Assembly (NCBI GenBank): GCA_002450075.1
Contig: DJYJ01000015.1
Span: 2,377 to 66,376 of the forward strand
Length of the DNA stretch: 64,000 nucleotides
Reading direction: 5' to 3'
From: Clostridiales bacterium UBA6981
GTDB lineage: Bacteria > Bacillota > Clostridia > Oscillospirales > Oscillospiraceae
Below the pieces are notes generated by a model, which had not been told where the DNA came from, ran no database searches, and worked only from the letters and a program-made list of their open reading frames with translations. Of this stretch, positions 13,950-47,892 are shown piece after piece. A program made the translations under genes and the position numbers. The number at the start of each line of letters is the position of its first letter. Position 1 is the first letter of the stretch.

Positions 13950-13972
13950 AGTTTTTTCTCCTTTACGGGAAA

Positions 13973-14000
13973 GCGGGAGGCGGTAGTTGCCGCCTCCCGC
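13973..14000 (-). terminator. GC-rich hairpin after the ABC operon (weak U-tract)
   Basis: GCGGGAGGCGG / CCGCCTCCCGC 11-bp stem with a 6-nt loop, between the permease stop (14029) and the GH78 start (13949). Confidence 0.5.
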
Positions 14001-14028
14001 CGCAATTGGGTTGGAGTTATTTGCTCTT

Positions 14029-15036: not shown

Positions 15037-15101
15037 GGAAGTCAGCCTCCAAACCGTATCAGACTTGCGGGGGAAAGTTTTTCGGGGATATGAGAGATCG
15101 C

Positions 15102-16331
15102 TTAGTTCATGTAGCCGTCCACGGCCAGAGCCTGCACGAAGGAGCAGAGGCCGGCGTAGGTGGCGTCGGGATTGACGGAGATGAAGAGATCCTTCATGTC
15201 GTCCCACTGGACCTGGGCCTTGTTGATGTCAACGGTCAGGCCGATGGGGCTGTTGTTGGCCATGGCCTCGAACTCCTCGGTGGAGTTGATGACGCAGAGG
15301 CCCGGATTGATGATCTCGGGGCCGGTGAAGTCGGGGTACATGGTGCCGGAGAGGGCGGCGTCGAGCATGGCGACAGGCCACAGGAAGCTTTCCACGGTGG
15401 AGATGCTGAGGTAAACGATGGTCTTGTCATCGCCGCAGTCGGCCAGCAGGTCGGGGTCGTTCTCAAAGCCGCCGGTGATCAGCTGCATATTGGGGTTGAT
15501 GGAGCCGTTGGCCTTGGCAGCCAGCATGGTCGGGTAGATGAAGGTGGTGCCGGCGCAGATGCCGACGATGGCGTCCAGATCCTGGTTTTCCTTCTCCATG
15601 AAGTAGGAATCCTCCAGCGGGCTGAACTGCAGCACGACGGGCTCGCCCACGACCTCGATGGGCTCGGAAGCGGTTTTGTTATACTCCTCGACCATCTGGA
15701 GGAAGTTGGCCGTGATGGCGGTCTGCTTGGGGTAGGCGTAGACGGGGAAGTTCATAACGGAGACCTTCTTGTAGCCGCGGGCGACGACCTCGTCGAAGTA
15801 GCCGCGGGCCTGCTCAACGGGGTCTACCAGACCGTCGGACACGTTGCCGAGGAAGTGGTCGTTCTGCAGAACGGCGGCGTTCACGGGGTTCTCGCCGAAG
15901 ACGCTGTCCATATCGCTGAGCACGCCGACCACATACAGATCGGGGTACTCTTCCATGATGCTGCCGAGACCGCCGTCCTGGCAGGCGATCAGGCCGACGA
16001 CGTCGGAGGTGTAGGCGTTCTTCACGGCGGCCAGGTTGGCAGCGGGATCGTTGAACATGTCGCCGTAGACGACCTCGAACTTGTAGCCCAGATTATTGCA
16101 GATCATGGTCAGGTAACCGACATAGAAGTCATAGGCCGGGCCGGAGGTGAGGTTGGACAGGTAGAGGATCTTGCCCTTGTCGGCGGCGGGAGCGGGAGCG
16201 GCTTCGGCTGCGGGGGCAGATTCGGTGCTGCCGGCGTTGTCGCTGCTCGCAGCGGGAGCGGCGGACTGGCCGCAGGCGCAGAGCGCGAACACCATGGCAA
16301 GCGCAAGGATCAGAGCGAGTGCTTTTTTCAT
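15102..16331 (-). CDS. ABC transporter substrate-binding lipoprotein (periplasmic-binding-protein type I)
   Basis: AAGGAGAA RBS. Lipoprotein signal MKKALALILALAMVFALCAC followed by an Ala/Pro/Ser-rich linker. It sits inside the ABC operon. Confidence 0.75.
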   Translation of the reverse strand: MKKALALILALAMVFALCACGQSAAPAASSDNAGSTESAPAAEAAPAPAADKGKILYLSNLTSGPAYDFYVGYLTMICNNLGYKFEVVYGDMFNDPAANLAAVKNAYTSDVVGLIACQDGGLGSIMEEYPDLYVVGVLSDMDSVFGENPVNAAVLQNDHFLGNVSDGLVDPVEQARGYFDEVVARGYKKVSVMNFPVYAYPKQTAITANFLQMVEEYNKTASEPIEVVGEPVVLQFSPLEDSYFMEKENQDLDAIVGICAGTTFIYPTMLAAKANGSINPNMQLITGGFENDPDLLADCGDDKTIVYLSISTVESFLWPVAMLDAALSGTMYPDFTGPEIINPGLCVINSTEEFEAMANNSPIGLTVDINKAQVQWDDMKDLFISVNPDATYAGLCSFVQALAVDGYMN

Positions 16332-32635: not shown

Positions 32636-32704
32636 TTTTTCTCCTCCCGGTGTAAAATTAGCGCAAATCAGGTTGTTCGATCCTGACCGTCTCATATGCT
32701 GCTG

Positions 32705-34216
32705 TCATTTGATCGTGTAGCCGGTAATATCAAAGAGAGCTTCGTTCACGGCGTCGTCGATGGTGTAGACGGTATAAACCGTTTCCCCGATCTCCGCGAC
32801 AGTCTCGACCACGGGGGCGCCTTTGAGGCAATAGACCAGTCGGCCGTCATCCCTGAAATAGAAGGCCGCCTGGGCTGTGCTGTCCACCTCCGGAAACAGC
32901 TCCACCGTATAGGAAACGCCCTCGATCTCCTGTGTCTGAGTCGTATAGTCCTTCCGCAGCGCGTAGCCGCGGATATCCGAAAGCAGGTGATCCATCAGCA
33001 TGATATTTTCAGCAATATAAGAGGAAGTCGTTGTCGTGGCAATGATGCCGGTCATATCATCCGGGTAGAGATTGTACGCCGTGCCGTCCCGGAAGAAGGT
33101 CACCACCGTATTTTCGAAGCCGGACACCCGGGTCGTGCGGCGGGAGTAGTACACGCCGTCTTTCCCGTGGACGTCATAGCTCTGGTCGGCGTCCATATAG
33201 TCTGTGTGCATATCGTAGTTCAGATGAATGCCCGCGTTCAGGTCGAGACCTGCCCACAGCGCATACAGCATGGACTCCGGCTTGCTCCGGTATTCTTCCA
33301 TCGTCATGGGCGCATAGCCGGAGAGGTCGGCTCCTTCCTTGGCATAGAAGAAGATCATATAGCCGGTTCCGTAGATGTCAAGCTCAATGACGCCGCCGTG
33401 AAGCTTGCCGCCCGCAGAGCCGCCGTCAGCCAGGGTGATCGTAAGGGCTTCGCCCTCCAGCGTCCACACCGTGATGCCCATGGCCTCGTCGTCGGAGGTC
33501 ATGCGGCCCGTGCCGCCGTCGGCCAATGTAAGCGCGGAGGAAACTCCCAGGTCGGCGGAATACACGAGCGCCCCTTCGTATTCCACGGCAAAGAGCTCAT
33601 ACTTGCCCTCGACGGGCAGCTCCGCCAGGACGGACGCGGCGGGCTCCGGTCCCCGCAGCATAGACGCAAACTCTCCCAGTGTGATCGGCTCGACGCCGGA
33701 AGTATCCGCACCCGGAGCGGCAAAGAGGGCGGAAAAGCCGTCATCGATCGTCAACGTCATCAGGCCGTCGGCGATCGTGCCGTTGATCACAGCGACGCCT
33801 GCCTGGAACTGCAGCGCGTCACCGTCCAGCTTCCACCAGTCGATCGGCCCCTGGTTGTTGTCGCCCCAGTACAGATAGCCGCTGCCGTCGGCTTCCAGAG
33901 TCACAGTCTCGCCCACCATATCCGGCATGGCGACATATTGATCCGGAAGGTCACTTCCCGCGCCGCCGAGCTCATACATCCGATCCATATAGGCGGCGCT
34001 GAATCTGGCGCATAGGAAGGTATACTCTCCGGCGTTGGCTTCCTGCTCCGTCACGACGGGCTCTGGCGTCGGTTCCCGGGTCGTTTCCGCAGGCGTCGCG
34101 GCAGGTATCTCCCGCACAGGCTTCTCCGGCTCCGCTTTTGTACCGCCGCAGGCACAAAGCGTCAACAATAGCGTCAACACAAGCAAGATGTACACGGAAC
34201 GTTTAACCTTATTCAT
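32705..34216 (-). CDS. lipoprotein, unknown function, with internal repeat
   Basis: GAAGGAGG RBS before ATG 34216. Lipobox LLLTLCACGG, a Pro/Thr/Glu linker, and two related blocks (TLEADGSGYL...LMTLTIDDG and TLADGGTGRM...ALTITLADGG). Confidence 0.6.
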   Translation of the reverse strand: MNKVKRSVYILLVLTLLLTLCACGGTKAEPEKPVREIPAATPAETTREPTPEPVVTEQEANAGEYTFLCARFSAAYMDRMYELGGAGSDLPDQYVAMPDMVGETVTLEADGSGYLYWGDNNQGPIDWWKLDGDALQFQAGVAVINGTIADGLMTLTIDDGFSALFAAPGADTSGVEPITLGEFASMLRGPEPAASVLAELPVEGKYELFAVEYEGALVYSADLGVSSALTLADGGTGRMTSDDEAMGITVWTLEGEALTITLADGGSAGGKLHGGVIELDIYGTGYMIFFYAKEGADLSGYAPMTMEEYRSKPESMLYALWAGLDLNAGIHLNYDMHTDYMDADQSYDVHGKDGVYYSRRTTRVSGFENTVVTFFRDGTAYNLYPDDMTGIIATTTTSSYIAENIMLMDHLLSDIRGYALRKDYTTQTQEIEGVSYTVELFPEVDSTAQAAFYFRDDGRLVYCLKGAPVVETVAEIGETVYTVYTIDDAVNEALFDITGYTIK

Positions 34217-34368
34217 AATGTAACCTCCTTCGCCTATCAATAATAACCCACTTGTATAGTACAGTTGAAAGGATACCAAAGCAATAGGTGGACAACTTTT
34301 TTTCATTGCAAAAATGTTGTCCGCTATGCTATAGTGTCCTTGAGCCGGAAGAGAAGGAGTGAACCGCC

Positions 34369-36183
34369 ATGCTTTCAGAGAGGATAAGCGCCATATTCAC
34401 ACTTCTGCACTGCAACAACACGGAGATTGCCCGTTACGCCGGCTGCTCGTCGGGCAATATCTCCAAACTGAAAACCGGAAGGCGCTCACCGAAGTCCAGC
34501 AGCCCTTCCATTGCCTCGCTGGCGAGCGGTATCTACGGCTATGCCGACTACGAAAACATGCTGCCTGCACTGCAGGAGCTCTGTGGCAGCACGGATACTG
34601 CGCGGGAGACCCTGCTTCCTGCTTTGGTCGCATGGCTCTATGAGACAGACGAGATCGTCCTGCCAGCTCTCACAGACGTGCCGAAAAGCAAGCGGGCGCG
34701 AAAACAGCGGCGGAAGGCCTTTGGAGAGCGACTGGATCGCGCTGCCGCCCTGTTGGATCTTTCCAACGCAAAACTTGCCTCGCAGCTTAGTATCGACGTC
34801 TCTCTTGTCAGCCGTTTCCGCAGCGGTATTTATTCGCCTCACGGGAATGACCGGCTGGCGGAGAAGCTGTCCGATCTGCTGTTCTCCCGTGCGCAGCAGG
34901 TAGGAAAAACAGAGGAGTTTGGCGCACTTTGCGGCGTTGGCGCAGCGCAGCTAAATTCCGATTCCGTGGCAGCGTGGCTCTATGAGATGCCCTCCGAAGA
35001 GGACAACGCGGTTATGGCTGGGCTGCTGCTGCGGTCTCTGGACGAGTTCAAGCCGGGCGGAGGCCTGCCTTCTGCCAGCCCGGATGCGGCGGAGAACCCG
35101 GTTGAAGCCTGCTATTTTGGAACGGAAGGGCTGCGGAGCGCTGTGATCCGCTTTTTGTCCGACGCTGCGCGGGAGGGCGGCGAGCTGCTCCTTTACTCCG
35201 ACGAGCCCATGGACTGGATGACGGGAGATCGGGCTTATTTTGCCCGGTGGACTTCCCTGATGAGCCAGTGTGTGAGCCGCGGCGTGACGATCAAGATCAT
35301 CCACAACGTAGACCGCATTGGGGAAGAGATGGTCAACGCGATCCGCGGCTGGCTGCCCCTGTATGTTTCCAGCAGGATCGAGCCCTTTGTCTTCCGCAAA
35401 CAGCAAAACGCACGGTTTTATCACACGGTATTCCTCCGATCCGGCAGCGCCTGTATCCACGGCTTCTTCCCCACGGAAGGCAGGGAGAGCCGATGGTATG
35501 AATATATCACGGACGCAAAGCGCCTCGGCCTGATCGAACGGGAGTATACCGCCATGCTGTCCGCCGCATCGCCGTTTCTCAAGGTCTACCGGGAAGCGTC
35601 ACGGGAGGAATACCTGTCGTTCCGCTCTGCCGGGCAAGGGGCGAGAGCGTTTCTGCTGTCCGACCTTCCTGTGTTTACTATGCCGGAGAAGCTGTTGGAG
35701 CGGATCCTAAGCCGCGCGGAGCTTGAGCCGGCGCGCAGGAGCTTCGTGCTTTCTCTCTACCGCCGGGAGCGAGAGCTGTTTCAGGCTTTGCTTCAGCAGG
35801 ATGCGGTAAACATGATCCTCTGCTTGCCGGAGGACACCTTGGGACAGCCGCGGTTCGTCAATTTCGGATTTGATCTGCTGGATCTCGTGATGGAATTTAC
35901 GCAGGAGGAATATGCCGAGCACCTGGCGGCCATCACCGAGCTTGTCAGAAACGAGAAGAATTTTCATTTGACGCTGCTGGCTGAGTCACCGTTCCGGGAG
36001 ATTCAGATCGCTATGCCGGGGGATGCTGTGGCCGTTCTGCGCAGCAAAAGGCCCTATGGCGCGTTTGTCTTTTCCAATCCCTCTCTGAGCCAGTCTGTAT
36101 CGGGGTACCTTTCCCTGCTGACAGAAAACCATGCCGCAGACAGAAGCTCGACAATTGCGGCATTGGAAAAGCTGATCCGGTGA
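34369..36183 (+). CDS. large (604 aa) protein with two N-terminal XRE-like HTH segments, otherwise unknown
   Basis: AAGGAG RBS. NNTEIARYAGCSSGNISKLKTGRRSP and SNAKLASQLSIDVSLVSRFRSGIYSP resemble XRE-type HTH helix2-turn-helix3. Confidence 0.55.
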   Translation: MLSERISAIFTLLHCNNTEIARYAGCSSGNISKLKTGRRSPKSSSPSIASLASGIYGYADYENMLPALQELCGSTDTARETLLPALVAWLYETDEIVLPALTDVPKSKRARKQRRKAFGERLDRAAALLDLSNAKLASQLSIDVSLVSRFRSGIYSPHGNDRLAEKLSDLLFSRAQQVGKTEEFGALCGVGAAQLNSDSVAAWLYEMPSEEDNAVMAGLLLRSLDEFKPGGGLPSASPDAAENPVEACYFGTEGLRSAVIRFLSDAAREGGELLLYSDEPMDWMTGDRAYFARWTSLMSQCVSRGVTIKIIHNVDRIGEEMVNAIRGWLPLYVSSRIEPFVFRKQQNARFYHTVFLRSGSACIHGFFPTEGRESRWYEYITDAKRLGLIEREYTAMLSAASPFLKVYREASREEYLSFRSAGQGARAFLLSDLPVFTMPEKLLERILSRAELEPARRSFVLSLYRRERELFQALLQQDAVNMILCLPEDTLGQPRFVNFGFDLLDLVMEFTQEEYAEHLAAITELVRNEKNFHLTLLAESPFREIQIAMPGDAVAVLRSKRPYGAFVFSNPSLSQSVSGYLSLLTENHAADRSSTIAALEKLIR

Positions 36184-36291
36184 ACACTTTGTATCTGTGA
36201 ACTGTTTTTCTCCTTGCAAAAACAAGGAGCCTGCTGTACGAAAAGCGCGTCCTTTTACACTGACGCATCCTTCTTGCTCGGAGGCGAGGAC

Positions 36292-36741
36292 ATGGCAAGC
36301 ATAGTTAATACAAACACCCTGATGAAACGCCTGTTCAAGGCAGCAGATCTTGACACCTACCTGGAAGGAAACGAAAGCGATCTTCACTCCCCGGACTTTT
36401 ATTCGCTTCTGAAGCAGGCCTGCGAAAAGCGGAATATGCTCCCGGCGCAGGTGATCGAACGCTCCCAGATCGAGCGGACCTATGGCCACCAGCTGTTTAA
36501 CGGAACGCGCCGGCCCTCACGCGATAAGGTGCTCCAGCTTGCGCTCGGCCTCGGCTTGAGCGTGGACGAGACCCAGCGTCTGCTGCGTGCGGCGGGAAAA
36601 AGCCCGCTCTATCCCCGGCTGAAGCGGGACGCCGTGATCCTGTACGGGATCGGGAAAAAGCTCCCCATCCTTACCGTTCAGGAGAACCTGACGAAATACG
36701 GGCTGACCCTGCTGGGAGGGCTGAAAAATGGAATCGACTGA
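36292..36741 (+). CDS. small XRE-like HTH protein coupled to the kinase gene
   Basis: GGAGGCGAGGAC precedes ATG 36292. PAQVIERSQIERTYGHQLFNGTRRPSRDKVLQLALGL HTH-like block. The 3' end overlaps the kinase start by 14 nt. Confidence 0.55.
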   Translation: MASIVNTNTLMKRLFKAADLDTYLEGNESDLHSPDFYSLLKQACEKRNMLPAQVIERSQIERTYGHQLFNGTRRPSRDKVLQLALGLGLSVDETQRLLRAAGKSPLYPRLKRDAVILYGIGKKLPILTVQENLTKYGLTLLGGLKNGID

Positions 36742-38446: not shown

Positions 38447-38471
38447 GTGAATACCGCGAAAAAGTTCCGAG

Positions 38472-38519
38472 AAAAGCGCCAATGTGTGCAGCCTGCACAC
38501 CAATTGGCGCTTTTCTTTT
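38472..38519 (+). terminator. intrinsic terminator after the kinase gene
   Basis: AAAAGCGCCAAT ... ATTGGCGCTTTT stem with an inner GTGCAG/CTGCAC helix, followed by TCTTTTG. Confidence 0.75.
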
Positions 38520-38584
38520 GCTATACTTTTTACTGGTTTATTGTAAGCAGATTTGCTTCCGAAAGAAACAGGAGGGACGGTACC

Positions 38585-40603
38585 ATGGCCTATACCGCAA
38601 TCGAAAATATGAGAAAACGGAATGAAGCGCGCTTTGGCTCGGATGTGGGGCCGCAGCAACCGCCTCTCTATCAGAACCGTTTCTGTCAGCAGGATCTGAA
38701 GTCCGCGGCGCTGCGCTTTCTCCATGAACGCTGTGAGCAACTGCTGTTTGACCCTGCGAGAGAGACGGAGGAGCGGCAGACCGGCGTTTTCCTCGGCAAG
38801 AGCCTTTCTGCAAACCAGATCCCCTTTAACATGGAAATGGACGTCAACCGGCTTTGTCTCGAAAAAGCGCTGGAGGCCTTTATCGACTCCGGCGTGGCCG
38901 AGGACGCCTATACGGTCTATTACTGCTATCTGGACATGTTCCTGGGGCGCTACGGAAACTCCAAGCGCATGGTGGAGCTGCTGAGCGAATACGAGGCAAA
39001 CGGCAGCTCGCTGCTGATGAAGCACCGGGATCACTATTCCCATTCGGTCTATGTGTTTGCCCTCGGCCTGGCCATCTACGAAACCAATGAAGCGTACCGG
39101 AACAGCTTTTGGCGCTTCTATCGGTTGGAGGAGCGGAAAGAGAACGAAAGAGCCAATCTGTTTTTGGAGTATTGGGGACTGACGGCGCTCTTTCACGACA
39201 TCGGCTATCCCTTTGAGCTGCCTTTCGAGCAGGTGCTCAGCTACTTTGAAGTGGATCATCAGGAGCGCGGCAAGGGCAGTTTATACCTGGCCTATCATGA
39301 TGTGGAGGCGCTGACCGCCCTGGACGAGGCGGCGAAGGTTCATTTCGAAACGCTTTACGGAAAACGCTTCGAGACGACCAGCGCGCTGCTGGCGCATGAT
39401 CTTGCGCAAAAGCTCGGCGCAGCCTATGACTTCTCCGAGGACTACCTGCTGGCCGTGCTGGACCGGAAGCCGACGCAGCCCAACCGCTTCGGCTACTTCA
39501 TGGATCACGCCTTTTTCAGCGCCTCCCGCCTGTACCGGGAGCTGGCGGAGGAGCTCGGCGCGGAGAATCTCTCTCCCATGCATGTGGACGCGCTGTCGGC
39601 CATTATGCTGCATAACAGCCTCTATAAGTTCTCCATCGCTTTTTATAAGGACAATGAAAAACGGAAAGCGCCGCTGAAGGCGGAGCTTCACCCCCTGGCC
39701 TGGCTGCTGATGCTCTGTGACGAGCTGCAGTGCTGGGACCGCACCGCCTACGGGCGCAATTCCCGCACGGAGCTGCACCCCATGGCCGTCGATTTTGATT
39801 TCTCCGACAGCGCGATCCGCGCCGTCTATTACTACGACCGGGAAGAACAGGAAAAAATCGACGCCTTCAAGCTGAAATACGCCGCCTGGGAAGCGGGCGG
39901 CGAGCAGGGCAAGCCTCCGCGTCTGAAAGCCTACAGCGACATGGCGGAGAAGGAGCAGCGCTTTACGGCGGATATTGAAAAGATCGTGGACACCGAGACC
40001 TGTCCTCTGCATATCCGTCCGGACGTCCGGCAGGTGGATCGCCGGAGCAAGCACACCTATCTGTCCGGCAGCAACTTCCTGCACTTATACGATTTTGCCG
40101 TGGCGCTCCACGGACGGAACATGCCGCAGGAGACCACTGCGGAGGAATTGGAAGAAAAATTCACCTCGCAGTCGCTGGAATACCAGCTCTCCGGCATCAA
40201 CCGTGCAAAAAGCTTCAGCCGCTATCTCAATGCCCTGGGCTGCTTCTATACGGACAGACCGGTGGATTATGAGATGGTGACGGCCTTTACGCCCGAGCAG
40301 GCGCTGCAGATCGCGCCCCTGGAGCATGAGCGCTGGGTGCGGGAGCATCAAGGCATGGGCTGGCGTTGTGGCACAGCCTATGAGACCCTGCCGCTCCCGG
40401 AGGATAACCGGAATGCGCGGAGAGCGCTGCGGGAGCAGCTGCGCTGCCACAAGCTGGCCATGGACGGAGATGTGACGGACGAAGAGGTCCGCGCGCATTT
40501 CTTCTCCCTGCCGGAGGAAGATCAGGACAAGGACTGGAAGCCCTTCAACAGCATGCTCAAGCTGCTGAAAAAGTTTGACGGGCTGCGCATCTATAAGCTG
40601 TAA
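38585..40603 (+). CDS. HD-domain phosphohydrolase with C-terminal RyR-like domain
   Basis: AGGAGGGA RBS before ATG 38585 (the listed 38447 start would read through the terminator). H..HD..H..D set: HYSHSVYVF, LFHDIGYPFE, IMLHNSLY, LMLCDELQCWD. The C-terminus LEHERWVREHQGMGWRCG...LPEEDQDKDWKPFNSMLKLLKKFDGLRIYK follows the RyR-domain pattern (E.W......GW.yG...LpeeeK..D......L...G..I.K). Confidence 0.6.
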   Translation: MAYTAIENMRKRNEARFGSDVGPQQPPLYQNRFCQQDLKSAALRFLHERCEQLLFDPARETEERQTGVFLGKSLSANQIPFNMEMDVNRLCLEKALEAFIDSGVAEDAYTVYYCYLDMFLGRYGNSKRMVELLSEYEANGSSLLMKHRDHYSHSVYVFALGLAIYETNEAYRNSFWRFYRLEERKENERANLFLEYWGLTALFHDIGYPFELPFEQVLSYFEVDHQERGKGSLYLAYHDVEALTALDEAAKVHFETLYGKRFETTSALLAHDLAQKLGAAYDFSEDYLLAVLDRKPTQPNRFGYFMDHAFFSASRLYRELAEELGAENLSPMHVDALSAIMLHNSLYKFSIAFYKDNEKRKAPLKAELHPLAWLLMLCDELQCWDRTAYGRNSRTELHPMAVDFDFSDSAIRAVYYYDREEQEKIDAFKLKYAAWEAGGEQGKPPRLKAYSDMAEKEQRFTADIEKIVDTETCPLHIRPDVRQVDRRSKHTYLSGSNFLHLYDFAVALHGRNMPQETTAEELEEKFTSQSLEYQLSGINRAKSFSRYLNALGCFYTDRPVDYEMVTAFTPEQALQIAPLEHERWVREHQGMGWRCGTAYETLPLPEDNRNARRALREQLRCHKLAMDGDVTDEEVRAHFFSLPEEDQDKDWKPFNSMLKLLKKFDGLRIYKL

Positions 40604-40622
40604 GCAAAGGCGGGAAAACACA

Positions 40623-41180
40623 ATGGCAAACCTTGCATCTGTCAGCGTTCTCTTTGAAAACGAAGAGCAAGCAAAGCGTGCTCTAACCGTCACGGAGGGC
40701 ATGATCAAGCTGCTCTATGCCCCGCCGACGCTGCCCTGGGCGGCAGAAGCGCAGCAAATCCCCTCGCTGAGCAAGCGCTATTTCCGCTTCTGTGAGGAAG
40801 CCGCAAAGCTTGACGTGCTCGCCGAGCGCCCGCACTGTGCGCTCAAATGGCTGCGGCGGGAGGGCGCGCAGCTCGCTCTTACGCGCTGCGCCGATATCCA
40901 GTCGCCTGTGAATGAACGCTCGCCGGCTGACTTTTTCAGTCAGCTGTGCCTTGTTCTGTCCAAGTGCTTTCCGGACGGTGCTTTTACGGCTTTCTGCCGC
41001 CATGAGGAGACGGTAAGCGCCACGGTGCAGCTGATCCGCATCATGCATCGGGATAACAAACTGATTTTCACCGAGATGTACCGGCTGGACGGAGATGAGC
41101 GGGACGAAGATGACTGGTCCTGCGCCGCCACGTTTTTGTTGCGGGACAGCGACGGCGTTTTCGTCTGGTCGAAGAGGTAA
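40623..41180 (+). CDS. hypothetical protein (185 aa), no recognisable domain
   Basis: ATG 19 nt after the HD-RyR stop and 6 nt before the next gene. The call rests on tight operon packing and reasonable composition only. Confidence 0.5.
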   Translation: MANLASVSVLFENEEQAKRALTVTEGMIKLLYAPPTLPWAAEAQQIPSLSKRYFRFCEEAAKLDVLAERPHCALKWLRREGAQLALTRCADIQSPVNERSPADFFSQLCLVLSKCFPDGAFTAFCRHEETVSATVQLIRIMHRDNKLIFTEMYRLDGDERDEDDWSCAATFLLRDSDGVFVWSKR

Positions 41181-41186
41181 ATAAGT

Positions 41187-42017
41187 ATGACCCCGAAATG
41201 GATGAAACAGATCCCGCCCTATGAGGGCGATCAGCCCTATTTGTACCTGGCCTTTGCCGAGGAGGACAGCGGGCGTGTCTGGAAGCTCCTGCGGCCGCTG
41301 CTGGCGCGGGGCTGCCGGGTGTGGTACTGCGTTGGCCCGGCGGGCAGCGCGGAGGAGCTGCTGTACCGACAGGAGCGCTGTGAAAAGGCGGGGCTGACCG
41401 TGGTCTATCTGACGGACGCACTCTGCGCGGACCGGGACAGCAAAAGCGCCGTTCTTGTCAATCAAAAATATAACCGTCCGATCCTCTGCCTGGATCCGGA
41501 CGAAAAGGACCGCCGCCTCGACATGAATCTGCGGGAGACGATCCCGCATGTTCCCTTATATCGGCTGTCAAGCGAGGAATGGGAGGGCGCCGTTTTACAC
41601 GCCGAGGGCTTTTCCCAGGACATGCTCGGTGAGCCGATCCCGATCGGAGACGACAGCAAAACCATCAAAAAGCTCACGCTGACCTTCTGTGCGTTGGCCC
41701 TGCTGCTGGCCGTGGTGTCCTTTGCGGGCTTTCGGGTGTTCGGCTGGTTCTCCCCCGCGGCGCGGGATGAGCTGGAAATCCGCGACCCGGCGATCCGCTC
41801 CGCGGTGCGTCAGGCTGTGGGCGGCGGCGCGATCACGGAGGAGCGGGCAAATGAGGTCAGCTTCCTGCGCTTCCGGGAACTGCCGGAGAGCTGGGAGGAA
41901 CTTGAGCTGCTGCCGCACTTACAGCGCATCGAGCTGCCGCAGCTCTCCCTGTTGGACGGCGGCGCGCTGCCGGAAGGAGACTGGGTCATCGAATTGAGCG
42001 GAGGTGACGGCTCATGA
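41187..42017 (+). CDS. degenerate TIR-like domain - TM - short LRR protein
   Basis: GAAGAGG RBS. PYEGDQPYLYLAFAEED...LLARGCRVWY parallels the PYEGSRPFVFISYAHRQ...WRLWYDEG block of the next gene. TM LTLTFCALALLLAVVSFAGF. LRR-like tail. Confidence 0.6.
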   Translation: MTPKWMKQIPPYEGDQPYLYLAFAEEDSGRVWKLLRPLLARGCRVWYCVGPAGSAEELLYRQERCEKAGLTVVYLTDALCADRDSKSAVLVNQKYNRPILCLDPDEKDRRLDMNLRETIPHVPLYRLSSEEWEGAVLHAEGFSQDMLGEPIPIGDDSKTIKKLTLTFCALALLLAVVSFAGFRVFGWFSPAARDELEIRDPAIRSAVRQAVGGGAITEERANEVSFLRFRELPESWEELELLPHLQRIELPQLSLLDGGALPEGDWVIELSGGDGS

Positions 42018-43180
42018 GCGGCTTCTTCAAGCCCTACGAGGGCAGCCGCCCCTTTGTCTTTATCAGCTATGCGCACCGCCAGTCCGATACCGTCCTCGAC
42101 ACCATCCGCATCCTGCACGAAAAGGACTGGCGGCTCTGGTACGACGAGGGGATCCCTGCAGGCAGCGACTGGCCGGCCAACATTGCCCGGCATATGCAAA
42201 GCTGTGAGCGGGTGATCTTCTTCCTCTCCGCGCGGGCTTTGGCATCCCACAACTGTTACAGCGAAATGAAGGCCGCGGCGCGGCAGGGAAAACCGATCCT
42301 GCTTGTCCGGCTGGAGGACATATCACCGGACGAAAAGTGGTCGGAGCTTCTGGCCGAATGTCCGGAGATTCCCTTGCTTGAGGAACCGGCGGAGCGTGCG
42401 GGCGCGATCCTGCGCTCCGGCTTTCTGCCCCGCCGCCTGCACCGGCGCTTTACGGAGCGCATCCCCTGGCGGGCGCTGGGACTGATCGCCTCGCTGCTCT
42501 TTTTCCTGGCGGCGGCGGGCGTGCTCGGCGCGCTGACCACGGGAATATGGAACCCGGTCATGGCAGCAGAAATCCCAACAGAGACGCCCGCTTCCCATGA
42601 GGCGCCGACACCGGTGCCCATTGTGGAGCTGGGAGAGGCGGAGCGCTTCTTCGCCGTCAGCTTCCCCGATAAGCAGCAGGAGCGTGCCATCCGCCGGGCG
42701 CTGGATATTCCCGCGGACGCGATCTACCGCTGGCAGATCGCCGGGATCCCGGAGCTGTATTTCTGCGGGAATCTGACGGTGGACGGCAAGGCCGCCGTCT
42801 CCTTCGACGCGGACGGGACCTGCCGCGTCAACGGAGCCCCGGTGATCCAGGGGAATGTGTCCGATCTGCGTCTGATCGAATCCATGGTAAAGCTGGAAAA
42901 ACTCGCCCTGATCTTCCAGCCGATGGACGACCTGTCCGGATTGAGCGGGCACCTGCTGTTGCGGGAGCTGAGCCTCGCGGGCAGCAGCGTGGACGATCTC
43001 TCCGCGCTGACAGAACTGCCAAGCCTGGAGACGCTGCATCTGGAGCACACCGGCGTGCGCGACCTGAGGCCGCTGGAAGAGCTGCCGAGCCTGAAAACCG
43101 TGACGGTCAGCCGGGAAATGCTGCCGCTGACATGGACCGAGCAGGCCGCTTTCGCGGTGGTTTTGATCCGTGAATCCTGA
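42014..43180 (+). CDS. TIR domain - TM - LRR protein (canonical bacterial TIR motifs)
   Basis: GGAGGTGA RBS and ATGA overlap with the upstream stop. FVFISYAHRQSD, WRLWYDEGIPAGSDW, VIFFLSARALASHNCYSEM (conserved Glu E84 at nt 42263-42265). TM LGLIASLLFFLAAAGVLGALTTGIW. C-terminal LRRs. Confidence 0.75.
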   Translation: MSGFFKPYEGSRPFVFISYAHRQSDTVLDTIRILHEKDWRLWYDEGIPAGSDWPANIARHMQSCERVIFFLSARALASHNCYSEMKAAARQGKPILLVRLEDISPDEKWSELLAECPEIPLLEEPAERAGAILRSGFLPRRLHRRFTERIPWRALGLIASLLFFLAAAGVLGALTTGIWNPVMAAEIPTETPASHEAPTPVPIVELGEAERFFAVSFPDKQQERAIRRALDIPADAIYRWQIAGIPELYFCGNLTVDGKAAVSFDADGTCRVNGAPVIQGNVSDLRLIESMVKLEKLALIFQPMDDLSGLSGHLLLRELSLAGSSVDDLSALTELPSLETLHLEHTGVRDLRPLEELPSLKTVTVSREMLPLTWTEQAAFAVVLIRES

Positions 43181-43201
43181 TTCTTTGAAGGAGGATGCGA
43201 T

Positions 43202-46200
43202 ATGAGTAAAAAAGTGATCCATCTGCTGTGCAGCGATGGCGACCGCGCGGCGCTGCAGCCGGTGCTGGACGCTTTGCAGGCCAAGGGACTGCGGGTGTCC
43301 GGGGAAGTACCGGAGAAAAACGACCTTGTGCTGGCGGTGCTGTCCGAGGCTTTCTATGCAGACAACGACAAGACCGATGCGCTGCTTGACCTGCTCGCCG
43401 CGGGGGCGGAAAACGTGCTGCCGCTGCAGCTCGACGGCGTACCGATCCCGGACGCGATCAAAAATGCGCTCTACGCCCGCAACATCATCCCCGCCGCAGG
43501 GCGGGACGCGGCACATACCGCCGAGCGCATCGCTGACGCGCTGCCGAAGCGGAAGTCGAAGCTGCCGCTGATCCTCGGCGCTGCCGGGCTCGTGCTGCTG
43601 GCCGCTGTCGGCCTGTTGATCTGGCGCGGCGCGCAGAAAGGGGAGGCCGTACCTGTCATGGCGGAGACGGCCAACGAGATTTATATCCCCATGGGTCTCA
43701 CGGAAGAAGACCTGGCCGCCATCGAGGACGTGGTCATCGTGGGCGACTATTTCGGCTATTACACCGACGCAGATTTCCGCGAGGCCGGAGAACACTGGCT
43801 CAACGTCTATGACGACGTGGCCTATCGCACCTTTGATGACGACGTTCCCCGGTGGATCAGCAAGGAGGACGGGCACGCCTATACCATGACCCGCTACGAC
43901 GATCTGCGCTTTCTGGAGCTGATGCCGAAGCTGCGGTTTCTGGAACTGGTGAATGTGGAGGCGGGTGCTGACTCGCTTCCGGATTTGAGCGAAGCCGCTA
44001 TTCTGGAGGGCGTGTCCCTCTCTGATTGCGAAATTGACAGTCTGGACTGGCTGGCCGGGGCGCATATGCACGACTTCGACATGCACTCCACGCAGGTGAC
44101 AGACTTTGCGCCGCTCAGCTCCTGCGAGAGACTGAGGACTGTATTTCTCGATTTCTATCAGATTGAAGAGGCCGACCTCTCGACATTCGCCCCGCCCGCG
44201 CTGGAACATCTGGAGATCTGCAACGGGCAGGATCTGCGCGGCGGGCTTGACCTTTCCGCCCTCTCTGCCTGTACAAAGCTGCGCGAATGCCGGCTGGATG
44301 CTGATCTCCCGCTCGCCGATCTGTCCTTCCTCGCCGACGCGTCAAAGCTGGAAGCTCTATACATTTACAATCTGCATGAGCTGCGGGATATCTCTGCGCT
44401 GAACGGGATGAAAAATCTCAAGAATCTGGACATCCAGTACTGCGAGCGCGTCACGGACTATACGCCCATCGCGGGGTGTTCTTCACTGGAACAGATCCAT
44501 CTCCAGTGTGACTACAACCCCGACGCCCTGCGGGACGCCTCCTTCCTCGCCGATCTTCCCAGACTGTGGGATATCGGGCTTTACGGCTGCAATCTGAACG
44601 ATCTGAACTTCCTGGAGGGCAAGCCGGATAACGGCAGCTTGTGTCTGGGCTTTGCCGGGGATATCCGGGACTATTCGGGGCTTGCCACTGTCAAGCACTA
44701 TGACTGGCTGCATCTGAATCCGCGCCGGGTAGACGGCAGCCGCTTCGGCGATCTCTCGGCCGTGCTGCCCTATCTGGAGGGCGCTGAGGTGAAGAACCTG
44801 CACCTGCACGACTGCGGCGGGATCGACCTGGGCCTGCTGCCCAAGGTCACAGAGAGCCTGGAGATCTGGTACGGCGATCTGACCGACTTGAGCACCCTGC
44901 CGGATTGGGGCATCAAGAAACTGATGCTGTATGACTGCCAGTACCTCACGAGCCTGGACGGCATACAGAGCCTGCCCGCTTATACACAGCCCGGCTCTTT
45001 GACCCTTGCGGTCGCGGGCTGCCCGCGTCTGCGGGACTGGAGCGCCATCGAAAACGCCAGTCTGTCGGGTCTGGAGCTGCAGGGCGTCTACTCGCTGCCG
45101 GTATTCGACGGCATCGGCTTCGGCTCCCTGCGGCTGGAGAGCATCGAGGATCTGAGCGATCTGAGCATTCTCTCCGCTCTGTCGGACGGTCACAGCTATA
45201 ACAGCATAGCGCTGGTGGGTCTGGACGCCATCAGTGACCTCACCCCGCTGCGCCGCCTGCAGATCAAGCATCTGCAGATCCCGCCCCAGGTGGCGGATCA
45301 GGCGGAGGAGCTGGTGGAAGCCGGGATCGTGGGCGACTATGAGGTGGCCTACCCCGACGGGGACTGGCAGCCCTTTGACGGTCGGGTAGAGCTTTTGAGC
45401 CTGGACGAGCTGGACACCCTTCCTTCCTCCCTGCTGCAGCGGGTGGAGTGCCTGTGTATTGCAGGCGATACGCTGTTCGATTTCGACCGCTATGACATCT
45501 GGGAAGACTGGGAGCACAGGGATCGGAACGGGAATCCGGCGCTGCAGCTCCACGACCGCGAGACGGACGCGGTGACGCCTCTCTCCCCGGGTGTGATCAC
45601 GGATCTGAGCAGCCTCAGCGCCCTCACCGGCCTGCGGGAACTGTATCTTGTCGGCCAGCCTATCCAAAGTCTGGACGGTATTCAGGTGTTCTCCTTCCTG
45701 GAGGAATTTTCCGCCAAGGGGTGTGCAGAGCTGACTGACGCCTCCGCTCTCTTCGCCCTGCCGGAGCTGCGCTGGGTGGAACTCAAGTGCACGCCGGTGG
45801 ATTCCATCCAGGGCGTACAGAATCTGCCGGAGCTGCGGTATCTGAACGTCTCCAACACAAAGGTGGAGGATCTGACGCCTCTGGCGGAGTGCGACTTCTC
45901 CGCTGCGGAGGAAGACATCGGCTTTGACCTGGACTGCAACGAGCTGAAACTGGGCGAGGAGGATTTCGCCGCCATTGCCCATATCCGGCGCTTTGGGGGT
46001 CTGGCCTTCACCGACGCCGATCCCGCCGTTTGGATCGATGCGCTGTCGGACAGCGAGATACATTATTTCGGCGCCGCAGGAGACCTGCAAAGCAATGAGG
46101 ACCTGGCTGCCTTCGTCTCGGATCATCCGGAGCTGCGGCAGCTGTTCCTGGGCTGGGCGGAGGATATTACCGATCTGACGCCGCTGCTGGCGCTGGAAAA

Positions 46201-46291
46201 CCTGGAAAGAGTCGAAATCAACGGGGACATGCGGGAGGCCATCGCCAGCCTCGACGGGCAGAGCTGTGACTGGCTGGAGATCCAAAACTGA
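43202..46291 (+). CDS. degenerate TIR-like domain - TM - very large (about 850 aa) LRR ectodomain protein
   Basis: GAAGGAGG RBS. The N-terminus VIHLLCSDGD...LQAKGLRV...LVLAVLSEAFYADNDKTD...VLPLQLDG keeps the beta-alpha periodicity of the TIR/flavodoxin-like fold. TM LPLILGAAGLVLLAAVGLLIW. Dozens of 22-25-aa L..L..L.L....I.D.S.L repeats follow. Confidence 0.65.
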   Translation: MSKKVIHLLCSDGDRAALQPVLDALQAKGLRVSGEVPEKNDLVLAVLSEAFYADNDKTDALLDLLAAGAENVLPLQLDGVPIPDAIKNALYARNIIPAAGRDAAHTAERIADALPKRKSKLPLILGAAGLVLLAAVGLLIWRGAQKGEAVPVMAETANEIYIPMGLTEEDLAAIEDVVIVGDYFGYYTDADFREAGEHWLNVYDDVAYRTFDDDVPRWISKEDGHAYTMTRYDDLRFLELMPKLRFLELVNVEAGADSLPDLSEAAILEGVSLSDCEIDSLDWLAGAHMHDFDMHSTQVTDFAPLSSCERLRTVFLDFYQIEEADLSTFAPPALEHLEICNGQDLRGGLDLSALSACTKLRECRLDADLPLADLSFLADASKLEALYIYNLHELRDISALNGMKNLKNLDIQYCERVTDYTPIAGCSSLEQIHLQCDYNPDALRDASFLADLPRLWDIGLYGCNLNDLNFLEGKPDNGSLCLGFAGDIRDYSGLATVKHYDWLHLNPRRVDGSRFGDLSAVLPYLEGAEVKNLHLHDCGGIDLGLLPKVTESLEIWYGDLTDLSTLPDWGIKKLMLYDCQYLTSLDGIQSLPAYTQPGSLTLAVAGCPRLRDWSAIENASLSGLELQGVYSLPVFDGIGFGSLRLESIEDLSDLSILSALSDGHSYNSIALVGLDAISDLTPLRRLQIKHLQIPPQVADQAEELVEAGIVGDYEVAYPDGDWQPFDGRVELLSLDELDTLPSSLLQRVECLCIAGDTLFDFDRYDIWEDWEHRDRNGNPALQLHDRETDAVTPLSPGVITDLSSLSALTGLRELYLVGQPIQSLDGIQVFSFLEEFSAKGCAELTDASALFALPELRWVELKCTPVDSIQGVQNLPELRYLNVSNTKVEDLTPLAECDFSAAEEDIGFDLDCNELKLGEEDFAAIAHIRRFGGLAFTDADPAVWIDALSDSEIHYFGAAGDLQSNEDLAAFVSDHPELRQLFLGWAEDITDLTPLLALENLERVEINGDMREAIASLDGQSCDWLEIQN

Positions 46292-47892
46292 TGAACACAG
46301 AGAAGACGATCCCGATCATCATCGGGGTCACCGGACACCGGGCGATCCGGGAGAAAGACCGTCCGGCGCTTACGGCGGCGGTAAAGGCGGAGCTGGAAAA
46401 GCTTCGCGGGCTTTGTTCTCACTCGCCGCTCGTGATGCTGAGCTCTCTCGCGGAGGGCGCCGATCTCCTGTGCGCCGACGCGGCGGAGGAGTTGGGTATT
46501 CCCCTGATCGCGGTACTTCCCCGGGAGCGGACGGATTACGAGCAGGATTTCAGCCCGGAGGCGCTCGAGCGCTTTGCCCACCACTGTGAGCGCGCCGGGC
46601 AGGTGTTCGTCTCGCCGAGCACAGAACCCCTTCCCCCAGATGGCGTCAGCCGGGCGTATGCGTTTCGGCAGGCCGGGATCTATGTGGCGTCCCACTGCCA
46701 TGTGCTGCTGGCCCTCTGGGACGGAGAGCCGGGGAAGCACGGCTGCGGCACGGCGGAGACGGTGGACTTTGCCCTGAACGGTAGTTATGATCCCGCGTCC
46801 GGCCTGTCCCCGCGCTTGGGCAGCAACGAGGCCGTGATCCACCTTTACACGCCGCGGGTGGAAAGCACGGAAAAGACGGCCGGTGCAGTGGCCGTTCTGG
46901 GAAATCAGGATGCCGTTTGGGACATACTCCGCAAAACGGACGACTTCAATCAAAACGCCTCGAAGGTTTCATCAACGGGGAACTCCCGGCTCCCTGCCGG
47001 GCATGACGGCGACCCCGCCCTGAAGAAGATGGAGACGATCAGTCGCATCGCGGGAAAACTCAGCCGACAATATGCCGGGCGTTATCGGCGCGTGCTTGCC
47101 TTGCTCGCTGTGGCCAGCGCCCTGGTTACCTTTGCGTTTTTACTGTACGACGAGGCGCAGGCGATTTGGATGATTCTTGTCTGCGGAGCGATGCTGCTTG
47201 CCGCCTGGGGCTGTCAGCGCTATGCCGTTCGTTCGGACTGTCACCGCCGCTATATCGAATACCGCGCGCTGGCCGAAGGCTTACGGGTGCAGACCTATCT
47301 GGGCTATGCGGGCAGCGGCATCCAGGCCTCCGGGCTGCTGTCCTGGACGCAGCAGGAGGAGACTGCGTGGATCCTGGACGCTCTCTGTGCGCTGACGATC
47401 GGAAACACACCGAGAGAGGCGCACGATATTCGTTCCTGCTGGGTGGATGCCCAGCGGGAGTACCACCAAAAAGCGGCAAAGAGCGCGGAAGAAAAGCTCT
47501 CTGCCAGTGACCGCACCGTGCGTTTTGCGTTGCTTCTGAGCGTTGGGTTATATCTGCTGGGCGTGGGCTATGAGCTCCTTTGCGGCGGACTGGTGTTCCG
47601 GCCCACTGTCGCGGTAGGGGATGTGGAGCTTTGGCGCACGGTCTTGAAGATCCTGGTGGGGACGATCTCCGCCGTGACGCTCTTTGTGGCCAATTTCTAC
47701 GGACGCCTGTCCCTGCCGCGCACGCTTTCCGACCACCGGAAGATGGAGCGCTTTTACGAAAAAATGTCCTCGGAGATCGAAAAGTGCGGACAGACGGATA
47801 CCGTTCTGACCGTGCTGGCCCGGGAGGAGCTGACCGAAAACGGCAACTGGTGCTCCTATCAGCGGGACAACAAGCCGGATCTTTCACTTTGA
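46291..47892 (+). CDS. SLOG-like Rossmannoid domain fused to two transmembrane hairpins (SLATT-like), candidate membrane effector
   Basis: The start overlaps the upstream stop (TGATG). N-terminal IIIGVTGHR...LVMLSSLAEGADLLCADAAEELGIPLIAVLP...HVLLALWDGEPGKHGCGTAETV matches the strand-helix pattern of LOG/DprA/YpsA-type SLOG domains. There are four hydrophobic helices in two pairs (VLALLAVASALVTFAFLLY / IWMILVCGAMLLAAWG and FALLLSVGLYLLGVGYELLCGG / ILVGTISAVTLFVANFYG). Confidence 0.6.
   Translation: MNTEKTIPIIIGVTGHRAIREKDRPALTAAVKAELEKLRGLCSHSPLVMLSSLAEGADLLCADAAEELGIPLIAVLPRERTDYEQDFSPEALERFAHHCERAGQVFVSPSTEPLPPDGVSRAYAFRQAGIYVASHCHVLLALWDGEPGKHGCGTAETVDFALNGSYDPASGLSPRLGSNEAVIHLYTPRVESTEKTAGAVAVLGNQDAVWDILRKTDDFNQNASKVSSTGNSRLPAGHDGDPALKKMETISRIAGKLSRQYAGRYRRVLALLAVASALVTFAFLLYDEAQAIWMILVCGAMLLAAWGCQRYAVRSDCHRRYIEYRALAEGLRVQTYLGYAGSGIQASGLLSWTQQEETAWILDALCALTIGNTPREAHDIRSCWVDAQREYHQKAAKSAEEKLSASDRTVRFALLLSVGLYLLGVGYELLCGGLVFRPTVAVGDVELWRTVLKILVGTISAVTLFVANFYGRLSLPRTLSDHRKMERFYEKMSSEIEKCGQTDTVLTVLAREELTENGNWCSYQRDNKPDLSL

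Follow-up and report, generated by a model that had tools for sequence, protein, structure and literature searches.

We analysed a window of 64,000 nucleotides from the genome of Clostridiales bacterium UBA6981 (GCA_002450075.1, contig DJYJ01000015.1, positions 2,377 to 66,376); positions given below are those of this window, unless a locus in another genome is named. The gene of interest is the last of a co-directional row and encodes a protein of 533 amino acids (aa) in which an N-terminal SLOG domain is fused to a module with four transmembrane (TM) segments. On balance, the evidence tips towards the view that this protein, designated SLOG-4TM, serves as a ligand-gated membrane effector or transducer in a Thoeris-like cassette that signals through a nucleotide derived from nicotinamide adenine dinucleotide (NAD).

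The open reading frame (ORF) of SLOG-4TM is a real and conserved gene, its conservation being far beyond chance. A word-indexed search returned over 1,355 clusters of homologues at 90% identity. With few exceptions these have a length of about 533 aa, and their annotation, from Oscillospiraceae, goes no further than 'hypothetical protein'. The size of the family was taken from a profile search that was run exhaustively over 1.84 billion representatives. At 50% identity, 7,409 representatives matched at E<=1e-3, and for 1,194 of them the match was at E<=1e-30. Most of these representatives (~500-680 aa) were covered over their full length, and the fusion of SLOG to the membrane module is seen across the family. 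The ATG of the gene (46291-46293) overlaps the TGA (46289-46291) of the preceding 1029-aa gene by one base in the sequence TGATG (...caaaacTGATGaac), and the two genes are translationally coupled. An earlier note on this stretch, made by a model from the letters alone, had already described the 533-aa reading frame on the forward strand, the single shared nucleotide and a set of N-terminal motifs. All of these were recovered, and the quoted motifs proved to be among the most conserved columns of the family. None of Pfam, NCBIfam and PADLOC holds a curated model that captures the family, and a profile search of the PDB sequences with it gave nothing meaningful.

The conserved N-terminal motifs read IIIGVTGHR, LVMLSSLAEGADLLCADAAEELG, PLIAVLP and HVLLALWDGE..GCGTAETV, and the columns G12, H16, R17, A54/G56/D58, P77, L139-G145 and G153/T154 were invariant or near-invariant. 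SLOG proteins are characterised by loops of glycine or polar residues, with motifs of the GxD/E and GGxGT types, that follow strand 1 or lie towards the end of the domain, and GVTGHR, AEGAD and WDG..GCGTAE agree with this pattern. An AlphaFold2 model of SLOG-4TM, built from an 18-sequence alignment, reached a mean predicted local distance difference test score (pLDDT) of 83 and a predicted template modelling score of 0.82. In this model strands (E) and helices (H) alternate in a Rossmann-like manner over residues 9-205 (E9-15/H21-41/E47-51/H57-67/E72-76/.../E138-143). When the model was compared with the PDB by Foldseek, the top matches were exclusively SLOG proteins. Located over residues 1-225, they included YpsA of Bacillus subtilis (2nx2, E=4e-5), DprA from three species (3uqz, 3e-4), the DprA-like ShosA (8zva, E=6e-4) and the molybdenum cofactor (Moco)-carrier and LOG-like proteins 1rcu and 1wek, the LOG-like matches having a probability of at least 0.96, while 5mll of the YpsA/YspA/DprA clade was also among the best matches. 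The earlier note had proposed a comparison with the SLOG domain of ThsA, and the ThsA structure bound to 3'-cyclic ADP-ribose (3'cADPR) was indeed matched with a probability of 0.96 (7uxs, E=0.15). TRPM2 and TRPM8 were matched weakly (probability 0.2-0.47). Among the viral structures of BFVD, the best matches were DprA-like and 'YspA cpYpsA-related SLOG' proteins, down to E=4.6e-7. The only soluble-domain or SLOG profiles that recurred in relatives were YAcAr and DprA (DNA_processg_A, dprA), all of them sub-threshold, with YAcAr returning in 6 of 29 and 7 of 10 relatives. Since the assignment is carried by the Foldseek matches and every profile stayed below threshold, membership is by fold rather than by modelled family. 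On its fold, the N-terminal domain thus belongs to the SLOG superfamily and there to the YpsA/YspA/DprA-like clade, while its own family has no model as yet.

Hydropathy revealed four TM segments at residues 266-287, 290-309, 412-431 and 451-469, which pair into two hairpins. Basic residues precede TM1 and TM3 and follow TM2 and TM4, and this places the SLOG domain, the middle region of ~100 residues and the C-terminus in the cytoplasm. In the AlphaFold2 model the hydrophobic segments are long helices with amphipathic helices in between. Together, these features indicate that the segments look like membrane hairpins and not like a buried soluble core, which the earlier note had named as an alternative.

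The first hairpin belongs to a unit that runs from an amphipathic helix through TM1, a short outside loop with a conserved YDE motif and TM2 to a conserved cytoplasmic helix with the motif H.KYLEYRxLAExLRVQ (H242-284, H291-315 and H317-339 in AlphaFold2). Over residues 258-337 this unit matched Pfam DUF4231, which we assume to belong to the SLATT clan, with 23.4 bits against a cut-off of 24.7 (E=8e-5). Over residues 254-332 it matched NCBIfam SLATT_3, the cut-off of which is 45 bits, with E=0.006. An association of SLOG with SLATT is implicit in the latter name, which stands for SMODS- and SLOG-associating 2TM. The similarity was followed in 29 diverse family members with identities to the query down to 25%. 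With the Pfam models, DUF4231 was matched in 10 of the 29 (best E 4.1e-5), SLATT_3 in three (3.7e-5) and SLATT_1 in one (0.0015); with those of NCBIfam, matches were obtained to SLATT_3 in 13 (3.7e-7), to SLATT_1 in seven (5.1e-5) and to SLATT_4 in two (5.6e-4). The three commonest NCBIfam families across this sample were therefore all SLATT families, SLATT-type models were the only recurrent matches to the membrane part, and wherever coordinates were given these matches fell on hairpin 1. Ten shorter representatives of ~310-370 aa, some of which may be partial gene calls, matched the membrane module only, and in these the first hairpin matched DUF4231 in six cases and SLATT_3 in one. A search of plasmids by tblastn with hairpin 1 gave nothing, and BFVD contained a single weak SLATT-annotated match (E=0.42). 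Judged from these sequence profiles, hairpin 1 is probably a genuine but remote SLATT homologue.

The second hairpin, with an invariant NYYGKLSL motif after TM4, is of a different kind. A duplication of the SLATT-like unit was considered as its origin and rejected, as an alignment of the two hairpins with hhalign had a probability of 2%, and residues 381-500 had no family match in any search with coordinates shown. Hence, of the SLATT layout that the earlier note had read into two TM pairs, the four segments in two hairpins stand, while the SLATT similarity is confined to hairpin 1, below threshold, and does not extend to hairpin 2. The protein ends in a conserved cytoplasmic motif in which E516 and W520 were invariant even in a 29-sequence alignment with a mean identity of 25%.

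Conceivably, the SLOG domain could be an enzyme. As an N-glycosidase like LOG, or through another nucleotide-processing activity, it would produce, mature or break down the nucleotide of a TIR protein, with the TM helices as a mere tether beside membrane-bound TIR receptors. Some SLOG clades, such as LOG, are catalytic (PMC9503650), LOG-family structures were among the Foldseek matches, and the polar residues of the predicted pocket (H16, R17, D58, R126/Q127, D144 and T154) are invariant or near-invariant. However, the closest structural and profile relatives are YpsA, YspA and DprA rather than LOG, and the literature treats that clade as ligand- or DNA-binding. Moreover, the membrane module is highly conserved (YDE, EYRxLAExLRVQ, NYYGKLSL, ENGxW), unlike a simple anchor, and its first hairpin resembles a SLATT effector domain. 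We therefore regard an enzymatic role as improbable.

The genes preceding that of SLOG-4TM are listed in Table 1 and encode, in order, an HTH_31 regulator, a protein kinase with one TM segment and leucine-rich repeats (LRRs), a 718-aa ORF, and proteins of 201, 276, 388 and 1029 aa. A strong, perfect-looking inverted repeat beyond the end of the row is likely to act as a bidirectional terminator that closes the operon. The 276-, 388- and 1029-aa proteins (41187-46291, +) are three consecutive TIR-TM-LRR paralogues. In each of them, as in the kinase, a basic stretch is followed by a single TM segment and then by the LRRs, from which it follows that the LRRs of all four proteins are extracellular. 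The three paralogues therewith have a topology like that of Toll-like receptors (TLRs), with the TIR domain inside and the LRRs outside the cell; TLRs consist of extracellular LRRs, one TM segment and a cytoplasmic TIR domain. This arrangement suggests that the three paralogues form a hetero-oligomeric surface receptor.

The 388-aa protein (TIR388) is the clear TIR protein among them; it also matched the PADLOC model of ThsB (E=0.0013), and its TM segment (152-179) is preceded by RRLHRRFTER. Among the three TIR-like proteins of the operon, only TIR388 retains the catalytic glutamate (E84 in NCYSEM), a residue that is conserved in the consensus of 25 homologues. As the sole bearer of this residue, TIR388 is the likely source of the signal and the presumed signal synthase of the operon. 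The 276-aa protein is related to TIR388 by BLASTP (E=9e-11) and hhalign (probability 98.9%). The 1029-aa protein, which the earlier note had called a TIR-LRR protein, was borne out as regards its LRRs (LRR_4, E=2.6e-20) and less so as regards its TIR domain: Pfam recognised no TIR domain in it, and its N-terminus aligned by hhalign with the TIR domain of the 276-aa protein at a probability of 95.6% and with that of TIR388 at 83.5%. This degenerate TIR-like domain lacks the catalytic glutamate and is, by its sequence, probably non-catalytic. The operon thus combines traits of Thoeris, namely a TIR protein with a catalytic glutamate and an adjacent SLOG effector in the same gene row.

To place this arrangement in the wider family, 80 loci were scanned from one genome per GTDB species. 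Almost all of these were from metagenome-assembled genomes (MAGs) of rumen or gut Clostridia, a group towards which the search patterns bias the sample. Partner genes were counted by tblastn with the window proteins in the 51 loci that had at least 8 kb upstream. The commonest partner was a homologue of the 718-aa ORF, referred to as HD-RyR, which was present in 40 of the 51 loci and stood immediately upstream of SLOG-4TM in 25. A TIR388-like gene was found within 10 kb in 30 loci, a homologue of the 1029-aa protein (LRR1029) in 29 and one of the 276-aa protein (p276) in 22. Loci without a TIR gene detected by BLAST included some with other partners, namely a TM-anchored TIR protein (L018), a TIR-TPR protein with a kinase-TPR protein (L054) and a DUF4062-NACHT protein (L011), and others that hold clostripain, kinases or BspA-type LRR proteins. 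Kinase-repeat proteins recur beside SLOG-4TM homologues (L007, L008, L035 and L054). In two distant Firmicutes cassettes (L080, 6211-7824, -; L081, 11478-13088, +) the partner is a TIR-TM-PASTA instead of a TIR-TM-LRR protein, and this again puts a ligand-binding domain outside the cell, PASTA domains being sensors of muropeptides and the cell wall.

Linkage to TIR genes, which the earlier note had taken as a point on which its reading depended, thus recurred, and it persisted among homologues of only ~27% identity. Seven of these had informative contigs, whereas three further distant homologues (P0253, P0268 and P0117) lay on short contigs without usable context. In four of the seven, a TIR or DUF4062 repeat protein was directly adjacent or overlapping: a TIR-NACHT-WD40 protein in L084, a TIR-WD40 protein in L085, together with a TIR-TPR protein and an RyR-domain protein, a DUF4062-NACHT-TPR protein in the complete genome L087, and a TIR-WD40 protein in L095. 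Two of the others were uninformative as to function, and the seventh is considered below. Genes for toxin-antitoxin, NACHT and AAA_15 proteins were also seen near distant homologues. In addition, a standalone SLOG protein of 174 aa and of the same clade is encoded directly upstream of a TIR-caspase-TIR row on a Methylorubrum plasmid (NZ_CP088248.1, 24557-26966; L090, 7986-10395). Its motifs read GVSGH / SLAxGxD / WDG..GGTG, and the database record annotates only its last 106 codons. With this additional SLOG gene, the row makes up a module that resembles type IV Thoeris.

These contexts also bear on the idea that SLOG-4TM is a membrane scaffold whose SLOG domain docks the TIR-like domains of the three receptors, or binds nucleic acid as DprA does, so that no small-molecule messenger is involved. 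TIR and SLOG share one Rossmannoid clade (PMC9503650), two of the three TIR-like domains in the window are catalytically degenerate, which suggests protein-protein roles, and DprA was among the best structural matches. On the other hand, one TIR protein of the catalytic type is kept, and DNA binding is hard to square with a polytopic membrane protein in this gene context. The linkage moreover persists in distant taxa with unrelated TIR architectures (WD40, TPR, NACHT and PASTA), which speaks for a ligand that diffuses rather than for a protein interface shaped by co-evolution. A pure scaffold is consequently the least probable of the explanations considered, and we judge it very unlikely.

The HD-RyR protein is not only the commonest but also the best-conserved neighbour of SLOG-4TM. 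The 718-aa ORF (38447-40603) has a GTG start at 38447. However, nearly all listed homologues have 667-689 aa and align from about residue 47, and the gene therefore probably starts at M47. The C-terminal Pfam RyR domain was significant in members of the HD-RyR family (E=1.5e-14 to 6e-7). The N-terminal two thirds carry the HD-type motifs HRDHYSHSVYV, FHDIGYPFE, HN and LCDE (H..H, HD, H, D), which were invariant in an alignment of close homologues that were at least 70% identical; the HD assignment is based mainly on these motifs together with a weak Pfam HD match of the window protein (E=0.014). An AlphaFold2 model of moderate quality (pLDDT 64) had an RyR3 repeat domain as its best Foldseek match (probability 0.98, E=0.1), other Foldseek matches, HD enzymes included, were of low probability, and a profile search of the PDB sequences with the HD-RyR family gave nothing meaningful. 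The RyR-domain protein of L085 (777 aa; 13716-16049, +), which has an otherwise different architecture and lies near the distant SLOG-4TM, TIR-WD40 and TIR-TPR genes, aligned through its RyR region with the window protein (E=4e-4). The RyR-domain linkage may thus extend beyond Clostridia. We found no functional context for a bacterial RyR domain in the literature searched. This partner had been missed by the earlier note, as had two features of the TIR proteins: they cross the membrane and bear their LRR or PASTA domains outside the cell, and only TIR388 keeps the catalytic glutamate.

The following background is relevant for the mechanism that we propose. In the Thoeris systems of the literature consulted, the invading phage is recognised by a TIR protein, which then sends a signal to an effector that is either soluble or in the membrane. 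The SLOG domain of ThsA binds 3'cADPR, the Macro-TM effector of type II Thoeris forms a pore, the SLATT effector ThsH of type VII Thoeris responds to canonical cyclic ADP-ribose (cADPR), and type III Thoeris has several TIR proteins and a SLOG effector (preprint 10.64898/2025.12.03.692087). SLATT has been predicted to be a nucleotide-responsive pore former, and SLOG domains of the YpsA clade to be sensors of cADPR-type ligands (PMC7159879, PMC9503650). In the mechanism that we propose for the window, an extracellular event at the cell surface would trigger the LRR-bearing TIR proteins; the trigger is probably to be sought there because these proteins are single-pass, with the TIR domain inside and the LRRs outside. 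TIR388 would then make an NAD-derived nucleotide in the cytoplasm, where this small molecule would be bound by the SLOG domain of SLOG-4TM. Once the ligand is bound, the four-helix membrane module would adopt another conformation or oligomeric state, and the permeability of the membrane would change as a result. HD-RyR probably acts in the same pathway, and it could do so either as a phosphohydrolase that degrades the signal or as a second signal-responsive effector. The outcome may be cell death in the course of defence or reversible signalling. With the SLOG fold, the membrane hairpins and the TIR linkage all found as described, the interpretation of the earlier note is partly supported, and ligand binding by the SLOG domain and killing by membrane disruption are best regarded as its conjectural parts.

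Several observations weigh against this proposal. A scan of the SLOG-4TM protein with PADLOC 2.0 gave zero matches to defence models, and the window is flanked by housekeeping genes (guaA, pyrG, asnB, a LysR regulator and amt-PII) rather than by a defence island. No curated SLOG model exceeded its cut-off on the protein, the Pfam model YAcAr reaching E=0.012 and 15.9 bits against a required 28.2, and the SLATT models likewise never rose above their curated cut-offs. Hairpin 2 and the C-terminal region have no recognisable relatives, and the conserved polar residues of the SLOG pocket could equally mean catalysis. In 12 of the 51 loci HD-RyR was present with no TIR gene detected within 10 kb, and the distant homologue of L093, the seventh context referred to above, is solitary among housekeeping genes; a ligand made by a TIR protein is for these reasons not guaranteed family-wide. 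Finally, numerous rumen Clostridia carry SLOG-4TM in well-conserved and mostly full-length form, with which a physiological role fits as well as that of an abortive-infection toxin.

The last of these points leads to the reading that we rank second, which retains the SLOG-gated membrane logic and replaces abortive-infection defence by a reversible, outside-in signalling pathway of rumen Clostridia. Accordingly, ligands from the cell wall or the environment would be perceived by the LRR or PASTA ectodomains, the TIR and Ser/Thr-kinase domains would relay the signal, SLOG-4TM would be a regulated ion channel and HD-RyR a modulator. PASTA and LRR domains are extracytoplasmic ligand binders, and the TIR partners, as well as the kinase in the window, span the membrane once and expose LRR, PASTA or unassigned domains on the outside. 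Ser/Thr kinases are met repeatedly among the neighbouring genes, and the flanking genes are of the housekeeping type. The phage search returned no match and the plasmid search a single one; a tblastn search of phages with the TIR domain returned two unannotated contigs only. In the 14 loci that hold all five proteins, the median identity to the window was 65% for HD-RyR, 60% for SLOG-4TM, 59% for TIR388, 51% for p276 and 44% for LRR1029, and the high conservation of the first two, in ordinary chromosomal contexts of many species, would suit a signalling function. However, the LRR ectodomain protein LRR1029, the least conserved of the five in 13 of the 14 loci, evolves fastest, as an arms-race receptor would; the ranking as a whole is the pattern expected for conserved signalling or output parts combined with a fast-evolving receptor. 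Likewise, distant homologues adjoin STAND/NACHT-TIR, toxin-antitoxin and other genes of the defence-island type, and every experimentally characterised bacterial TIR-plus-SLOG or TIR-plus-SLATT system is antiphage. We consider non-lethal signalling possible, though rather doubtful, and the enzymatic and scaffold explanations less likely still.

A more far-reaching version of the proposal regards the operon as a bacterial counterpart of Toll-like-receptor signalling, joined to second messengers of the type of ADP-ribose (ADPR) or cADPR. With their LRR or PASTA ectodomains, the TIR and kinase receptors would register an extracellular event, for instance the adsorption of a phage or damage to the cell wall, and the messenger made by TIR would act on a SLOG-gated four-TM channel and on the HD-RyR protein. 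We put this forward as a tentative idea only.

Comparison with known systems indicates which elements of the cassette have precedents. ThsA, the SIR2-SLOG effector of type I Thoeris, likewise links a SLOG domain to an effector module and has TIR genes of the ThsB type next to it. Pfam recognised neither a SIR2 nor a Macro domain in SLOG-4TM, which differs from ThsA in the lack of the former, in its output through a four-TM module, in the lack of a PADLOC ThsA match and in a SLOG domain that is closer to YpsA, YspA and DprA (E=0.15 for 7uxs versus 4e-5 for YpsA). SLATT proteins are membrane effectors linked to TIR proteins or cyclases and are thought to oligomerise and breach the membrane. Hairpin 1 and its flanking helices resemble, at the sub-threshold level of the SLATT/DUF4231 profiles, the SLATT effectors of type VII Thoeris (ThsH), CBASS and GTPase-centric systems. 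In contrast to these, SLOG-4TM has a fused N-terminal SLOG domain and, behind the SLATT-like unit, another pair of TM segments that is unrelated to it, as well as a conserved C-terminal motif. ThsH has been described to lack a SLOG domain and to sense cADPR in pockets that lie between its SLATT protomers. The combination of multiple TIR genes with a SLOG effector, as in the window, recalls type III Thoeris (ThsD) as described in the preprint 10.64898/2025.12.03.692087, to which description this likeness is limited. The type II Thoeris effector shares the design of a cytoplasmic nucleotide-binding domain joined to TM helices, in which a signal is converted to a membrane pore; it differs in its Macro sensor, its His-ADPR signal and its unrelated membrane part. 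YpsA, YspA (YAcAr) and DprA share GxD-type and glycine-rich motifs with SLOG-4TM, but they are soluble, and SLOG-4TM has its own signature (GVTGHR, WDG..GCGTAE) in addition to the fused membrane module. The likeness to TRPM2 and to TLR and cADPR-RyR signalling is an architectural analogy only, without detectable homology in the membrane part. TRPM channels carry an N-terminal SLOG-like domain, which in TRPM2 binds ADPR and gates a cation channel, and the RyR domain is named after the channel that is classically linked to cADPR.

Pairings of TIR with SLOG (types I and III) and of TIR with SLATT (type VII) have thus been described before. As far as the literature was searched, the fusion of a SLOG domain with a SLATT-like unit and a second hairpin, in the form of a very large unnamed family, is new. 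The same holds for the near-constant HD-RyR partner and for TM TIR receptors with LRR or PASTA ectodomains in Firmicutes.

Table 1. Positions of the SLOG-4TM gene, its parts and the other members of the operon in the window
Feature	Position	Strand	Evidence and remarks
HTH_31 (Xre-type) regulator	36214-36741	+	overlaps start of kinase gene; head of gene row
Ser/Thr kinase-TM-extracellular LRR protein, 572 aa	36728-38446	+	Pfam Pkinase E=8e-27, LRR_4; TM 265-289
HD-RyR protein, 672 aa from M47 of 718-aa ORF (probable start)	38585-40603	+	homologue lengths; RyR and HD evidence
201-aa ORF between HD-RyR and TIR genes, poorly conserved	40575-41180	+	no family match; tblastn
276-aa divergent TIR-TM-(short LRR) protein (p276)	41187-42017	+	catalytic Glu replaced; TM 159-188
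388-aa TIR-TM-LRR protein (TIR388)	42014-43180	+	Pfam TIR_2 E=5e-17, ThsB_TIR E=0.004, LRR_4
1029-aa protein (LRR1029): degenerate TIR-like N-domain, one TM, large extracellular LRR region	43202-46291	+	Pfam LRR_4; TM 119-143
SLOG-4TM gene (533 aa)	46291-47892	+	ORF, homologue clusters, AlphaFold2 model
Cytoplasmic SLOG domain, ~residues 6-225	46306-46965	+	motifs GVTGHR, SLAEGADxLCA, LLALWDG..GCGTAE; Foldseek
SLATT-like unit, ~residues 242-339	47014-47307	+	profile matches, hydropathy
Second two-TM hairpin, ~residues 381-499 (TM3, TM4)	47431-47787	+	hydropathy; AlphaFold2 H381-431, H445-471
Conserved cytoplasmic C-terminal motif LAREELxENGxWxSYQRDN	47797-47889	+	family alignments
Inverted repeat between convergent SLOG-4TM gene and guaA	48141-48172		12 or 14 pairs, depending on the strand, with 8 G-C pairs; likely terminator

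Some further observations were made on the family and on the window. A SLOG-4TM homologue of 521 aa (P0121, 51% identical) has GVIAETA in place of GVTGHR and a deletion of the WDG..GCGTAE segment, with the membrane module intact; from its sequence it may be a ligand-blind or decoy paralogue. The MAG RUG14730 has two SLOG-4TM paralogues (L005 and L032), one of which is 83% identical to the window protein and stands in a full TIR/LRR cassette, the other being 54% identical and having no partner genes detected within 10 kb. In some cassettes the TIR receptors are replaced by a clostripain of 1083 aa (C11, caspase-like) or by multi-kinase proteins, one of them a protein of 2111 aa with three kinase domains and TPR (L033, 5372-8623; L035, 8883-9968 and 11621-17956). 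The 201-aa ORF had no family match in Pfam, PADLOC or NCBIfam and was found by tblastn in just four other loci. Directly upstream of the cassette lies a 604-aa ORF (34369-36183, +) without a family match, preceded at 34306-34335 by the only promoter-like site of the region. Long ORFs overlap there on opposite strands (32705-34306, -; 32696-34015, +), and the former, although also of 533 aa, was rejected as a relative of SLOG-4TM, the equal length being coincidental. The segment 24000-32000, which encodes a solute-binding protein, a hybrid histidine kinase/response regulator and a sodium:solute symporter, has a lower content of guanine and cytosine (0.49-0.54 versus ~0.60 elsewhere) and may be horizontally acquired.

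If the proposed role is confirmed, the SLOG-4TM family would merit dedicated models in Pfam, NCBIfam and PADLOC, and bacterial TIR signalling would gain a new effector class and a new mode of sensing. The cassette would then also provide the first functional context for a bacterial RyR domain and an accessible prokaryotic system in which to model channels that, like TRPM2, are gated by SLOG. If, in addition, the comparison with Toll-like-receptor signalling were to hold true, this would be the first bacterial TIR immune or signalling pathway to be triggered from outside the cell, and the TIR, SLOG-channel and RyR modules, which are parts of cADPR/ADPR calcium signalling in animals, would be brought together in one prokaryotic operon.

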